Assembly: GCA_964645535.1 (NCBI GenBank)
Contig: CAZYCQ010000005.1
Coordinates: 61,394 to 108,025 of the forward strand
Reading direction: 5' to 3'
Origin: an uncultured archaeon
GTDB taxonomy: Archaea; Asgardarchaeota; Heimdallarchaeia; Heimdallarchaeales; Kariarchaeaceae
Length of the DNA stretch: 46,632 nt
The notes beneath the pieces were generated by a model, which ran no database searches, was not told where the DNA came from, and saw only the letters and a list, made by a program, of their open reading frames with translations. Within the stretch, counting starts at the first letter, position 1, and each line of letters starts with the position of its first letter. Below are positions 39,381 through 46,632 of this stretch, piece by piece. A program made the position numbers and the translations under genes.

Positions 39381-40364
39381 ATGCATCCTGTAATTAAGCG
39401 ATGGGCGTTCCTGCTCTCATCCACATCTGTTATGGTCTATTTTTCTGAAAAGATGTACTGGTACGTCCAAGGGTATTCCTACCTTGAATTGATATTGTTT
39501 TACCTTTTTGCATCCTATTCCGTTTTTTGGGCAATAGACCATTTCAAAATCAATGATGTGTGGGGTTTGGCATTGGCCGGTATACTTTATCCACTATTTG
39601 TGGAAGGCGTCTTTACAGGGATTATCACCGCAGACATCACTGGGATCATGCTTTCATATTTCGTGGGATGGCATACAACACTTGCTGTGCTTATAGGCTG
39701 GTTTTGGCATCGCAAACTTCTCATTGAGCGCCGGACTCGAACCATAATCCTGAGCTCAGTTCTTCTAGGTCTTCTTCTTGGCTTTTGGGCAACGGTCTAT
39801 TGGTTGCCTGAAAATATCAATGACCCCGAATTGAGCCCTGAAAACGGATTCCACTCCGGAAAATGGCTCTTGATTGACTATGCCCTCCTCCAACTTTATC
39901 TTGGTGCCATTTATATATTCAGTCATTTTATACTTTCAAAGACTTGGATTGAAAGATTTCAACCGTCTAAATGGGAAAACTATACAATCTTATCCCTTGT
40001 TCTTCTTCTATCGTTGATACAAGCACTTTCATCTTCCTTCTTCATTCTATGGTTGATATTTCTTTATGCGATTGTCCTCCTTGCTCTCCGAAAATATTCT
40101 CAAGGGCATTCCGAGGTGACTGTGCTGGAGCAGCTTGCTGGTGAAGTTAGGGTTCGAGATATTCTTTTGCTGTCCCTTATCAATCTATCTGCGATTGTCG
40201 CATATGCTTTAGTCGATGCAATTGAATTGTCTGAAGAAGTGATCCGCAAACTTTTCCTGAATGGGATTGTTGGCATTCAGGTGATCTATGGTGCAGGTAT
40301 CTTATTGTATTCAATCATCAGAGTTTGGAAGAGAAAAGATCGAACCATCTCTCAAACTGAGTAA
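39381..40364 (+). CDS. Multi-pass membrane hypothetical protein
   Basis: About 9 hydrophobic segments; FSEKMYW, VEGV and WH motifs. Confidence 0.75.
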   Translation: MHPVIKRWAFLLSSTSVMVYFSEKMYWYVQGYSYLELILFYLFASYSVFWAIDHFKINDVWGLALAGILYPLFVEGVFTGIITADITGIMLSYFVGWHTTLAVLIGWFWHRKLLIERRTRTIILSSVLLGLLLGFWATVYWLPENINDPELSPENGFHSGKWLLIDYALLQLYLGAIYIFSHFILSKTWIERFQPSKWENYTILSLVLLLSLIQALSSSFFILWLIFLYAIVLLALRKYSQGHSEVTVLEQLAGEVRVRDILLLSLINLSAIVAYALVDAIELSEEVIRKLFLNGIVGIQVIYGAGILLYSIIRVWKRKDRTISQTE

Positions 40365-40410
40365 AAATTTTACTGGATGCTTATATTTTAACCTTGCAAA
40401 TATTGTTGTA

Positions 40411-40992
40411 ATGACAATGAATTCAGAGACCTCCCTTGGCCTGCTTAAGGGTTTTCAATCTTTTCTTTCTTTGATCATCGTCCTTTCCTTCCTGCAAACA
40501 ATTGGAGGACAGGACGTAGTTCAGATCAATGATCCAGATAAACCTTTGTTGGTTCTTCCATGGGGTGGCCATCATTTTATTTGTGGGGTCTTCGCTCGCT
40601 TTTTAGGGCGTTCATAAGAGAATCTTGAAATTGCGCAATGAAGATCTTGACCTTGGCCAATCTCCATTCCCAATCACGAAGACCTCTGCTCTAATGGCAA
40701 AGGAAACTGAGAGGTTAAACAAGACAATAGGGCTGTTGGATTTTGTTGCTTCCCTGACTTTGGGTTGGACATTGGTACTTATTCCATTTTATATTGTGTT
40801 CATTTTGCTATGGATTGTTTCCCTATTTACCGATAAGATTTTAGTGGTTCGTGGCGTGACATCCTCGGAACAATTGTTGTTTGGGGAATCGCAAACCTGC
40901 TATTCATGTTAATATTAAGGCTGTATCGCATTGGGCGGCGGTTAGCAACGTATTCTAAAATTATCGCAAAATTGGATCCTGAACTGCTTTAG
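40411..40992 (+). pseudogene. Degraded multi-pass membrane protein gene
   Basis: Hydrophobic reading continues across a frameshift at ~40562 (PW|GVAIILFVG), a TAG at ~40604 and a frameshift at ~40855 (|ILGTIVVWGIANLLFML...DPELL*). Confidence 0.55.
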
Positions 40993-41001
40993 GTGTTTGT
41001 A

Positions 41002-41286
41002 ATGGGTCGTGAGGAAAGGCTTCTAAAGGTTTTGGCAGGACTTTTTGTAGCCGTTTCCGAAATCTCAACGTCCGGATGCACTAGGGATCAAGTAAATTCC
41101 GGTATCCTTAGATTGGGCTTTAAGGCACATAACCCACATCAACTCAGAAAGGATTTGAATTGGTTAATTGAACGGAAATTAGTGAAAATGGTTAAGGATT
41201 CCCCCAAAAGAAAATACCTTCCAACTCTGAAAGGACAACGGCTTGCAGAAAACATTATTCATGTTTGGAAAGAGCTGATGAAATGA
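41002..41286 (+). CDS. Small winged-helix protein
   Basis: LRKDLNWLIERKLVKM...YLPTLKGQRLA recognition-helix/wing pattern. Confidence 0.6.
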   Translation: MGREERLLKVLAGLFVAVSEISTSGCTRDQVNSGILRLGFKAHNPHQLRKDLNWLIERKLVKMVKDSPKRKYLPTLKGQRLAENIIHVWKELMK

Positions 41287-43220
41287 AGTCCTGTAAGATT
41301 GTTTTTTCCGAAAAATACTGTAGGGATTGACCTCATTTATCAATTTCATCCATGATTGCAAGTTTATCATCTTTTTGCTCTTACTTCTTATCATTCCCAT
41401 AATGCTCATGATGGCCTCTTGGATCTATCTTTCTCACGAATTTGACAATCTTTTTATTCTATTTTGGTCATAAACCTGCATGAAACTCTCAAACTTAATG
41501 ATTCTATTGCTTTCGGCAGCAAGTGTCACTTTGACCAATTGGTCACATCCCATAATTTATGTGCCCAACTCCATATCTTTGGGGACAACAGATTCATCTA
41601 ATGTACCGCATCTGATCCCAGAAACTGACCAAATTATCGGAGCGGTTGTGCAGGATCCTTCCCATAAAAATAATGCACTTGATCGAAATCAACTTTCAAG
41701 TCGTGTTCTGAGTCAATTTGCTCTCACAAAACTTAAGAAAATTGGTACTAATCTTCCAGATTCAATCCACGTTTCCTCTGCTCCTACAATCGATCCTATT
41801 GTTATTGTTGGAGATCAGGACTTGGTCAGTCAAGCTGCAGCCAGAGGATGGTAGGGATCTGGCACTGCTCAATTTCCGATCACGATTACTGGGGAAAGCA
41901 TCACTGAAAACAGTACGGTGAAAACACCTGTTTACATTAAGGATACCACGTTAGCAATTGATTTCAAGGTCAATACCATACACAACGCTACAAACCCCAA
42001 CAATCAGTTAGGCATTGGTGGTGTGGTTTTGGACAATGTCTCCAATGTATTCTTTTACGATAACGTAATCGGTTCAAATAAGGAATTTGGTGTTTATGCT
42101 GTCTACAGCAGGAATATCTGGTTTATTGGGAACACATTCCAATATAACCATAGATCCAATATTTTCTTATCACAATCTTCAGAGATACGAATTATCAACA
42201 ACACTTTTCTTTCAACTGCACTGTTGGATGATGATTACGATTATTATAATGCAGAGATATTCATCCAAGACTCCAACCAAATAACGATCGAAGGAAACAC
42301 TTTTGCAAAGGGGAGTACCAGCAAAGGGATATTTACCACGTTGGTAGGGAATGTCACCGTTGTCGGGAACAATTTTGCAAACAGTACCCAGAGTGTAAAT
42401 GATTTGGGAAGGATTGTCTTTGAAGATGTTCTCGGAGACAATCTTATTGAAAACAACACCATTACCAACAACTTGGGGAGTGGAATCGTCTTTTATGGAT
42501 CCTACGACCCGAAGGTAAGTATCGTAAATAACAATACCATTGCGAACAATCAAGGTTCTGGTATCGTCATCAATCCTGGTAGCTATGCGGCAAATAATAT
42601 TCCTCTTATAATCGCAAACAACAGTATTTTCAACAATCTCGGACATGGTGTCTATGCTGACAAGGGGTTGGCAAACTCTACAATCAGTTCGAACCTTATT
42701 GAAGGAAATGGGGGAACCGGGATTTTCCTTGAACATTACCAGACCATCTTTCTAATGTTGAATATCACCCTTTCAGGCAATACCGTTCGATCCAACAATT
42801 TAGGAGTCCATTTCAAATACGTGGAGGGCGTAACCCTCCGAAATGGTGTGGTTGATAAGAACAAGCAGTATGGAATTCATCTTGAAGCCTCAGAGAACAT
42901 AACGGTATCCCACATTGTTGCAGATGAAAATGGAATGTCTGGCATCTATATCAAGGGTGATACCTATTCAGATGGTGCAAACAATACACTTGAATACATC
43001 GATGCAAATCGAAACAATGAAAGTGGAATTTATATCCGAAGCGACTTCAATGACCTATTTGCAATAAGTGCTGTGGCCAACAAGCTGTATGGTCTCTATC
43101 TCCGATTTACAACAAACACGACCGTTATTGATTTTTCAGCTGGCTTCAACCAAGATAAGAATGCCTATCTCTACTATTCTACAAATGGAACATTCAATGA
43201 TTGGGATGTTTCTGATGGTT

Positions 43221-43868
43221 CATATGTTTCGTTTCCCCCTTCAATCGCAATTCCCGTGTTCTTAACTGTAAATGTATTGTTTATTATCTTGGCATTGGTT
43301 GAAGATAACGAATAGATACCTTCATTGATACCAGAAGTGAATATGTTTTCCCGGATTTCTGCATAGCGTGAAGAGTTATCCAAGTAGATACCAGCACTCC
43401 CATTGTTGTAGGAGTTATAGAATTCGTTATGACTAATGGTTGTTGCCTCATCTCCATCCAAAATGACCCCATAGGCGGATCTCGGCAACTCTGTGGCGGG
43501 TATGAATGGGGCGATGAAATTTTGAGTGATGTTTGTTGACTTTGAATTGGTTCCTACTCGGATATATGCCATGAAAAGGTCATCCGATGTACCTTCTGAT
43601 TGAAAACTATTACCCCAAATTGTGACGGATTCAGTTTCAAAAAGATAAATGGCATCAACAACGGTTTTCCTAAAGATCGTATCAAAAATGGTAATATTGG
43701 TTGAATAGGCGGCATAGAACCCATGGGTATTGTTTTCGAATGTCGAATCGGAGATCGTCAGGTTTGAACTCCAACTGTAGGCCACATAAACACCATAACT
43801 AGTATGATCGTAGATGGTTGCCGTTTTTATAGCGTTGTTGGAGCCGGCATATAGGTAAATCCCATATG
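43221..43868 (-). other. Intragenic inversion bounded by CATATG palindromes
   Basis: CATATG at 43221-43226 and 43863-43868. The 636-bp interior encodes beta-helix repeats on the minus strand, and re-inversion gives in-frame junctions on both sides. Confidence 0.92.
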
Positions 43869-44599
43869 TCTATGCAAACACATTCCAACGAAATTCTTAT
43901 GGTATTGCGATATTGAACGGAGTGAATATCTCGATTACGGAAAATTCATTCAAGGACATTTCCATAGGTGGGATCTCGATAGGTGACAGCTTCTTCGGTA
44001 ATGGCGGGTCCACTGATTTTCCCCTCGAGATTACAAACAATCAAATGGTAAATGTCTCAACCGGGATTGAGTTGGACTCCTTCAGGAATGTCAAAATAAT
44101 TCACAACGATATCTCGTTAGCAAGCTCTTATGGAATCTACATTTTTGATTCTCCGAATGTCGACATAGAGGACAATTTAATCCATCACAACACGATGACG
44201 GGGATAGTCCTCAATGGCAGCAATGTGGATGCCATTTCCATTCTGAGGAACACCATCTATTACCAATACTACAGTTATGCCATCGAACTGCATGGGACAA
44301 AAGGGGTAAGTATATCCGACAATATATTCCTTATCAACGGCCTGATGAGGAAGTCCCAGATTCTTGACAATGGACAGTCGACAACCCTTTCCAATAACTA
44401 TTGGGATGATGCAGTTCCATTCAACGAGGATGCCAACAACGATGGTATCGGTGATGTGGAATACAAAACTGAAGGAAGTGCAGGTTCAATGGATTCTTCT
44501 CCCCTGCTTACCCCTCCAGTTTATTCTTACGATAGCCATTTCTTGCTTGAAGCAATATTTGTGGCCTTTCCTCCCATAACACCAATCAATGGAACCTAT

Positions 44600-45150
44600 C
44601 GTCTTGGATGGAGGATTGCGTTCGATTCCAATTACCATTCCGTCACCTATTCCCTCTTTTACAGCAATGACAATGGGGCAACCTTCACGCAAATTGCCAC
44701 AGGATTGACTGAACAAACCTATGACTGGAATACCGCATCCCTTCCAAATGGACAATACAGGTTGAAGATCGTCGCGAATGATGGAAATGGACTAACTGCG
44801 GAACATGTTTCGAATGTCTTCAACATAGGTGATCCCAATCAACAGACTCATGAACTGAAGGTTCCCACACTTCTCAATCCCTTGGGAGGTGAAACCCTGT
44901 CCGGTACCATAGAGGTTCGTTGGGATGCTGCTGTGGATACGCTTGGCCATTCCATCACCTATTCCCTCCATATTTCTTCAGATAATGGTGCCACTTGGGA
45001 ATTGATTGCTGATGGACTGAATGGAACTATCTATCTCTGGGATACCTCCTCTGTTGCCAATGGTCAGTACCTGATGAAGGTGGTGGCTGATGATGGTAAT
45101 GGTCTTACCGCTGAGGATCAAAGCGAAACGGCATTTACTATTCAAAATGC
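44600..45150 (+). repeat. Tandem duplicated Ig/FN3-like domain
   Basis: HSVTYSLFYSNDNGATF...WNTASLPNGQYRLKIVANDGNGLTAE vs HSITYSLHISSDNGATW...WDTSSVANGQYLMKVVADDGNGLTAE. Confidence 0.8.
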
Positions 45151-45296
45151 GGAAACAAGTACCTCCACGACCTCAACAGTCTACACCTCCCTCTACCTCG
45201 TCAACAAGTGAAAACGACGGGATTGCCCCGTTCTTCATTATGGTCTTTACTCTCGGCATGATTGTCCTGCGAAAGAAGAAGAAATGGTTCAAATAA

Positions 45297-46463
45297 TTAA
45301 TGTTTGAAAAATTGATCCAATGTTTTTCTGTTCTGTTCCACCAGTTTGACCAGTTCATCCGTAAGTTCCGTCATGTGGGAAAGATTGGCACTGACATCTT
45401 CCATTGTTGCGGCAATCTCTTCTGATGATGCTGACGTCTCTTCAGAAATCGCAGCAATCTGTTCCACATCGGTTCTCATCTCATTAAAGTACCTTTCAAG
45501 AGTCTGGGTGGCCTCTTCTGCTGTTTCCTTGATCTGATCCGCAATTGTGGTCGAGCTTTCTGCAAGACGTCTCACGTTTTCTGCAACCACCGCAAATCCT
45601 CTACCATAATCTCCTGCACGTGAAGCTTCGATACCTGCGTTCAGTGCGAGAATATTGGTCTGAATGGCAATTTCACTAACCTGCTCGGTGTTTCTCTGGA
45701 TCTGCTCAATAATCTGCCTGACCAGTTTTTCTCCTTCTGCCTGCTTGTTTGTCATCTCCAACAGCATATCTGTCTGACTGGATGCACCCTGTGCCATGGA
45801 TTGTGTTGAAGCCGTCACCTCCTCCACTGATGCACTGAGTTCTTCAGTATTGGCACTTAACGAATCGACAGTTCGAGATATGATCTGGTTGCTTTTCACC
45901 ATGGTTTCTGTCAATGTAGCCGTAATATCCAGAATGTCATTGACAACCTTGGCATTTTCTCCTAGGATCTTGTCGTTCAAGACTCTTTTTCCAGTTATTC
46001 TTGCTACCAGATCTCCATTTTCAATCTTGGATCGCAGTGCAATCAGCTCATCCGAAAGTGGCTTGATCGTATCAAAAATGCTGTACACGGCTCCCATTCC
46101 AATGAGAATGTGGATCAAGGCAATCCCTATGAAAACCGGCACGTAGCCAACAGGAAATGTCTGACCCTCCGGGGTATCTAGCACCGTAGCTGCTGAAAGT
46201 GCCAAAAAGACGATTACCAGAACATGCAAAGATACCTTGAACCTGAAATCGCTTGTTCCTAACCTGAAAACCAGAAACAGAAGGACGATGGAAAGGACAA
46301 CTCCATCACGGATGATCTCATCAAGCACCGCTGCTGGTGTTCCAAGAACTGGTATTCCCAAGGTCGAAAGATAATAGTTCATCACCACCAATGGAAAAAT
46401 CAAGAACTCCGTCTTTGTATACCATGGAGCTGATTTCAATCTTTCCTTGAATGATAATTCCAT
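45297..46463 (-). CDS. Methyl-accepting chemotaxis protein
   Basis: [38 protein letters not shown] hairpin-tip signature; about 4 N-terminal TMs. Confidence 0.93.
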
Positions 46464-46487
46464 GAATAAATAAAATCAATGGATTAT

Positions 46488-46631
46488 TTATGTTGAATGC
46501 CTTGCGTTCATAAAAAACTCAATGAAATGCCTGATGTGTTCCATTACTGCCTGATGTGATTTCCCCCTTCCAATCCTGCCGTGAAGTTGTTGAATGGAAA
46601 CTTCTTCCGGCAGTTCTTGTAGACAAATCAC
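46488..46631 (-). CDS. Possible 3' end of a gene entering from beyond the window
   Basis: Open minus-strand frame VICLQELPEEVSIQQLHGRIGRGKSHQAVMEHIRHFIEFFMNARHST*. Confidence 0.3.
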   Translation of the reverse strand: MICLQELPEEVSIQQLHGRIGRGKSHQAVMEHIRHFIEFFMNARHST

Positions 46632-46632
46632 G

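Follow-up and report, generated by a model that had tools for sequence, protein, structure and literature searches.

Inversions between short inverted repeats in E. coli are said to have been described by Schofield et al. in 1992. Microhomology 'U-turn' inversions are known from organelle DNA (PMC4417113). Events of both types are exact, have only a few inverted bases at each breakpoint, involve no enzyme or site of their own, and arise as rare single events. The intragenic invertons of Chanin et al., of which one archaeal case has been reported (10.1101/2023.03.11.532203), are the other close relatives. In those of the premature-stop type, the inversion lies wholly within a cell-surface gene, and one of the two orientations truncates the product. 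These invertons are recognised by their longer inverted repeats and are flipped by invertases.

In this study, we describe an inversion in a large beta-helix gene of an uncultured Asgard-group archaeon. Like the E. coli and organelle inversions, it is exact, has few inverted bases at each breakpoint, has no evident enzyme or site, and appears to be a rare single event. However, the repeat is only 6 bp long and is itself a palindrome. U-turn events leave one junction, whereas this inversion keeps both reciprocal junctions. Furthermore, unlike E. coli or an organelle, the host is an archaeon known from metagenomes only. The locus also shares with the invertons of Chanin et al. its wholly intragenic position, a truncated product in one orientation, a cell-surface gene as target, and possibly the presence of both orientations in one sample. 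In contrast to those invertons, it has 6 bp of repeat, no nearby recombinase, and two other inactivating lesions. The first-pass annotation of this DNA had been aware of no intragenic switch in such archaeal genes, which is partly outdated in view of the reported archaeal inverton. On our reading, the locus provides a clean, base-exact example of a short palindrome that may mediate inversion, and of the decay of a large surface-protein gene in an uncultured Asgard-group archaeon.

The window, by which we mean the whole stretch of DNA analysed, is 46,632 nucleotides long and is part of the 108-kb contig C5 in a genome of 3.6 Mb (G000, GCA_964645535.1). The genome encodes ribosomal protein L24e, a family that matched archaeal controls only, which marks the organism as an archaeon. 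The parts of the gene are listed in Table 1. On the plus strand, a frame that begins with GTG at 41918 runs to DVSDGSY, continues through 30 unrelated codons, and ends at a TAG (43313-43315). The 636 bp between the two CATATG cores are reversed end for end and are readable on the minus strand only, in a frame that is open from 43869 down to 43177. A minus-strand TAG (43872-43870) stands immediately outside the right core. When the interior is reverse-complemented, a single open frame of 1097 codons results, from 41918 to the TGA that ends part C, with no base gained or lost. The restored frame is no additional coincidence, because reversing any exact inversion returns the ancestral frame. The junctions read GGTTCATATGTTTC and ATCCCATATGTCTA in the inverted form, and GGTTCATATGGGAT and GAAACATATGTCTA in the restored form, GAAACATATGTCTA being the restored right junction.

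Table 1. Parts of the gene, breakpoint cores, and blastn alignment to the orthologous locus L011 (positions in the window).
Feature	Positions	Strand	Basis or remark
5' part: hydrophobic signal-like N-terminus and N-domain, closed by in-frame TAG 41852-41854	41480..41854	+	
Beta-helix part A (Pfam Beta_helix/NosD), collinear with ortholog	41855..43220	+	
Left CATATG core, palindrome at left breakpoint	43221-43226	.	
Inverted interior (part B), beta-helix repeats	43227..43862	-	blastn, Pfam
Right CATATG core at right breakpoint	43863-43868	.	
Part C: beta-helix end, two Ig-like/Asp-box modules, Ser/Thr linker; early TGA 45209-45211	43869..45211	+	
Hydrophobic C-terminal anchor and basic tail (SENDGIAPFF...RKKKKWFK, then stop), now in the +1 frame	45207..45296	+	matches the in-frame C-termini of both orthologs
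blastn piece 1, L011 6357-7801	41782-43226	+	
blastn piece 2, L011 7796-8443	43868-43221	-	
blastn piece 3, L011 8438-11044	43863-46463	+	

Comparison by blastn with L011, the locus of a closer relative, gave three pieces that abut one another, the middle one in reverse orientation (Table 1). The overlaps between neighbouring pieces are exactly the two 6-bp cores. An exact in-frame inversion between two CATATG motifs, as the first-pass annotation had claimed, is thereby confirmed together with the flipped frame, and the stop-free minus-strand interior with a TAG just outside the right breakpoint was also correctly seen. The same applies to the claimed lack of inverted homology outside the core; between the two window sites there is no inverted identity beyond the 6-bp CATATG, and the adjoining bases differ on both sides. 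By rough arithmetic, blunt breaks at random positions would show at least 6 bp of inverted identity in about one of 10^3 cases. The 6 bp found at both breakpoints are therefore more than expected of blunt joining.

Right-handed beta-helix proteins of the Pfam families PF13229 (Beta_helix) and PF05048 (NosD) are common as adhesin-like proteins in archaea and bacteria. P0001, the intact 1290-aa ortholog, scores 227 bits with PF13229 and 192 bits with PF05048, above the gathering score, with seven stretches assigned to Beta_helix and six to NosD. Parts A, B, and C of the window gene each score over the Pfam cut-offs, and the interior is 82% identical in amino acid sequence to residues ~601-814 of P0001. 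The gene shares with beta-helix surface proteins these Pfam matches, the N-terminal hydrophobic leader, the Ser/Thr linker, and the C-terminal anchor. However, the window copy is broken three times, and a full protein is impossible.

P0001 is encoded at the loci L011 and L012, which come from the Logan runs DRR684994/5. These loci are syntenic with the window; a ferritin gene and the same small genes are followed by the beta-helix gene and then by a convergent MCP-signal gene. In G002, a genome of the same genus, the end of part A, the interior, and part C lie on one strand of contig C58 (locus L002), in an open frame of 817 codons that is cut by the contig end. The three parts are collinear in one open frame in L011/L012 and in L002. 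The inverted state is therefore derived, and it is base-exact. A comparison with sister genomes, which the first-pass annotation had proposed, thus yielded a collinear and intact gene at the Logan locus and a collinear one in G002. The inverted-segment protein had no match among JGI metagenome contigs and GTDB genome contigs. Inversion driven by a paralog was ruled out, as no close paralog of the interior occurs elsewhere in the genome and each 30-mer at the break points is found only once.

The dN/dS values against L011 are 0.14 for part A, 0.22 for part B, and 0.11 for part C, indicating that the gene was under purifying selection until recently and that its decay is recent. A block of ~720 nt is 92-97% identical in nucleotide sequence to L011, compared with ~80% in the remaining gene, and its synonymous sites are also conserved. 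In restored coordinates, this tract spans ~43540-44260; in the window, it is divided between 43227-43549 (minus) and 43863-44260 (plus). Since the inversion has to be undone for the tract to be continuous, the tract predates the inversion. The tract itself looks like the product of recent recombination between lineages, or an unusually constrained stretch.

The inversion is one of three independent lesions when the gene is compared with P0001 and L002. The second is the nonsense codon that closes the 5' part. This TAG is codon 125 and stands where the ortholog has CAG (Gln). The frame continues beyond it; the window reads RGW, the stop, and then GSGTAQFPITITG, and P0001 reads RGWQGSGSAQFPITITG. 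The third lesion lies in the Ser/Thr linker, where a frameshift between 45152 and 45206 puts the anchor and tail in the +1 frame up to 45296, whereas they are in frame in the orthologs. Each of the two NCBI assemblies, that of the window and GCA_003696825.1 (contig L013), carries the full set of three lesions. L013 is identical to the window at the TAG and at the frameshift, and the Logan contigs L014 and L016 are identical to it at the TAG and the frameshift, respectively. The neighbouring genes are intact. Because the TAG and the frameshift add to the inversion in comparison with the intact ortholog, the gene appears to be a pseudogene, and the four ORFs called here would be parts of this one pseudogene. 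The restored orientation still carries the TAG and the out-of-frame anchor, and therefore flipping back would give no working gene; neither orientation would yield a functional product. That the gene might be decaying had been among the options of the first-pass annotation. Decay is supported, and by two lesions, the early TAG and the 3' frameshift, that had gone unnoticed.

TAG is an ordinary stop codon in this genome and ends 183 of 924 long frames. A reading of TAG as pyrrolysine was ruled out, given that no PylS scored above the cut-off and that TAG is a common stop. As a separate observation, 16 of the 183 long frames (at least 400 codons) that end in TAG are followed by at least 200 open in-frame codons, against 30 of 741 for TGA and TAA. 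This roughly twofold excess could reflect nonsense pseudogenes arising by CAG/TGG to TAG changes, or some read-through.

The inverted junctions are found in more than one assembly. The left-junction protein, whose tail is specific to the junction, clusters with a single other protein, which comes from GCA_003696825.1. In that assembly, L013 is 99.992% identical to the window over 12.7 kb, with one SNP (41825), and contains both inverted junctions. It has the same four split ORFs, its contig breaks are different, and it runs past the end of the window's contig. The next 2.6 kb, which G000 has on contig C153, contain five more SNPs between GCA_003696825.1 and G000. A third assembly, Logan contig L014 of run SRR7905022, corresponds to window 40287-43250 and reads through the left junction in its inverted state; the three assemblies possibly come from one site or overlapping read sets and are not fully independent. 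Since a 6-bp repeat cannot confuse graphs of k of at least 31, the junction k-mers must occur in the reads at contig-level coverage.

The contig ends in SRR7905022 carry additional information. Logan contigs are built from k=31 graphs from which singleton k-mers are discarded, and they are broken at branches (PMC12424806). L014 is unbroken through 43226 and ends at 43250, the last 31-mer that still contains one left-flank base. L016, from the same run, corresponds to window 43863-46632 with one SNP (45724), and its first base is the first base of the right core; the right junction lies outside the coverage of these two contigs. The 30-mers at both break points (43250 and 43863) are unique in the genome. 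We simulated the k=31 graph for three k-mer sets and predicted the contig breaks. The inverted sequence alone gave no breaks. Addition of the restored right junction gave a contig end at 43250 and the next start at 43863, as observed. Addition of the restored left junction gave breaks at 43226 and 43839, which were not observed. The ends of L014 and L016 match the graph with the restored right junction, and therefore the ancestral right junction is probably present in the SRR7905022 reads. The restored left junction seems to be absent or pruned in this run. An exact look-up for the presumed interior Logan contig product gave no match. Judging by the contig ends alone, the ancestral orientation probably coexists as a minor allele of low abundance in at least one sample. 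The implied junction fits a minor ancestral allele (strain polymorphism) and flipping equally. As illustrated here, per-run contig ends can reveal structural polymorphism.

We searched the genome for signs of a recombination system. The 3.6-Mb genome contains 1060 pairs of CATATG at a spacing of 90-4000 bp, and the pair described here is the only one that restores a through-frame when flipped. A general scan for two open flanks around an interior that is open in antisense, with an inverted core of at least 5 bp and at least 100 open codons in each part, gave six cases with a long interior and no other convincing one. The five other candidates were rejected, being either normal adjacent genes or antisense frames open by chance. 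The whole of contig C5 gave no hit to a tyrosine or serine recombinase, which extends the absence noted earlier for the window. Matches to PF00589 (tyrosine recombinase) occur only on contigs C87 and C78, and those to PF00239 (resolvase domain) only on C80, C60, and C100; nothing links these candidates to the CATATG site. Both of these scans, for further CATATG-bounded inversions and for recombinases, had been suggested by the first-pass annotation.

We consider it probable that a single inversion at a 6-bp short inverted repeat, guided by microhomology, took place in a decaying beta-helix gene and is still polymorphic in the population. The ancestor would have been a gene of ~1290 codons that encoded a right-handed beta-helix protein, secreted and anchored in the membrane, and is now a putative pseudogene. 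The 636-bp reciprocal inversion may have occurred by illegitimate recombination between the two CATATG copies. Since a palindrome is its own inverted repeat, the two copies can pair head to head, and strand exchange can then flip the interior cleanly; such an exchange would involve no gain or loss of bases. Possible routes are strand or template switching during replication, or microhomology-guided rejoining of two breaks. The molecular route is not readable from the sequence, and microhomology is what we infer. A dedicated invertase would be unnecessary. The inverted allele would be the major form in the sampled population, and the ancestral orientation would be the minor allele in at least one sample. 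Among the three readings that the first-pass annotation had left side by side, the evidence favours that of a single microhomology inversion in a gene undergoing decay, because of the three lesions, the 6-bp core, the lack of a nearby recombinase, and the lack of a second event in 3.6 Mb.

The switch, another of these readings, is unlikely. Here, the locus would be a reversible intragenic inverton of the premature-stop type, in which a recombinase flips the 636 bp at the CATATG cores and turns the surface protein off and on. Surface proteins are the usual class of phase-variation targets, and intragenic invertons have been described, including the archaeal case mentioned above. However, the two sites share 6 bp only, and an inverton would be expected to have flanking inverted repeats of ~10-30 bp or more as recombinase sites. 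Coexisting orientations are also expected of a switch, and the contig breaks in SRR7905022 are consistent with reads of both the inverted form and the restored right junction, but the latter is only one of the two restored junctions. The sister-species ortholog L011 has CATATG at both sites as well. On the other hand, G002 has it at neither, and in DRR684994/5, despite both CATATG sites, contigs of 205 kb and 86 kb span the gene without a break. The genome does encode tyrosine and serine recombinase domains at other places, but the 108-kb contig is free of them and the genome shows no second event. The stop at codon 125 and the out-of-frame anchor, which the restored form keeps, also argue against a switch.

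A more specific version, which we regard as distinctly unlikely, is a live reversible inversion through a minimal 6-bp palindromic crossover core, carried out by an unlinked or unidentified recombinase, with the restored right junction in SRR7905022 as its other state. In that case, an adhesin-like gene that used to be phase-variable would either have been damaged recently by the TAG and the frameshift or tolerate them. True flipping would matter much more than a single accident, because, to our knowledge, archaea offer hardly any documented cases of programmed DNA inversion and Asgard lineages none.

It is highly doubtful that a resident or incoming enzyme cleaved the DNA at both CATATG sites and that the fragment was religated in reverse. 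Enzymes of the NdeI type recognise CATATG and leave a palindromic overhang of 2 nt, and cutting and rejoining would account for the same 6-bp palindrome at both breakpoints and for a base-exact inversion. However, any 6-bp inverted repeat would be equally good for microhomology. Moreover, the genome contains CATATG about as often as expected (1016 occurrences for 1041 expected, ratio 0.98) but avoids CTGCAG (ratio 0.32), and there is no sign of a CATATG-specific system. The PstI-type site CTGCAG (338 seen against 1047 expected) has by far the lowest ratio among the 64 six-base palindromes, and its avoidance suggests a resident CTGCAG-specific restriction-modification system.

An assembly artefact, that is, a misassembly or an amplification or library chimera covering a true genome in the restored orientation, is very unlikely; the genome is a 176-contig MAG and the restored junction seems to be present in the reads, but the inverted junctions occur in assemblies from three different pipelines (both in the two NCBI assemblies, the left one in Logan), both reciprocal junctions are exact, the repeat is too short to mislead graphs of k of at least 31, and the adjoining TAG and frameshift mark a gene that is decaying anyway, so that the chimera considered in the first-pass annotation finds little room.

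Single-base differences separate the assemblies. Position 41825 is G in the window and in Logan and C in GCA_003696825.1, and position 45724 is A in the window and C in Logan. There are thus at least three haplotypes with evidence of inverted junctions, namely G000 and GCA_003696825.1 with both junctions and the Logan haplotype with the left only. The start of L014, at 40287, falls within the preceding gene and directly follows a small hairpin, CTGAATG-N10-CATTCAG (40257-40280); the 30-mers there are unique in the genome. Exact look-up for the contig to the left of L014 gave no match, and neither did an exact 34-mer of the right flank in metagenome contigs. The window's contig C5 and Logan contig L016 end at the same base (window 46603-46632). 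GCA_003696825.1 continues past the end of C5 into C153 of G000, with a 55-bp overlap and 5 SNPs in 2.6 kb, which suggests either a true branch in the graph or a difference between strains at this point.
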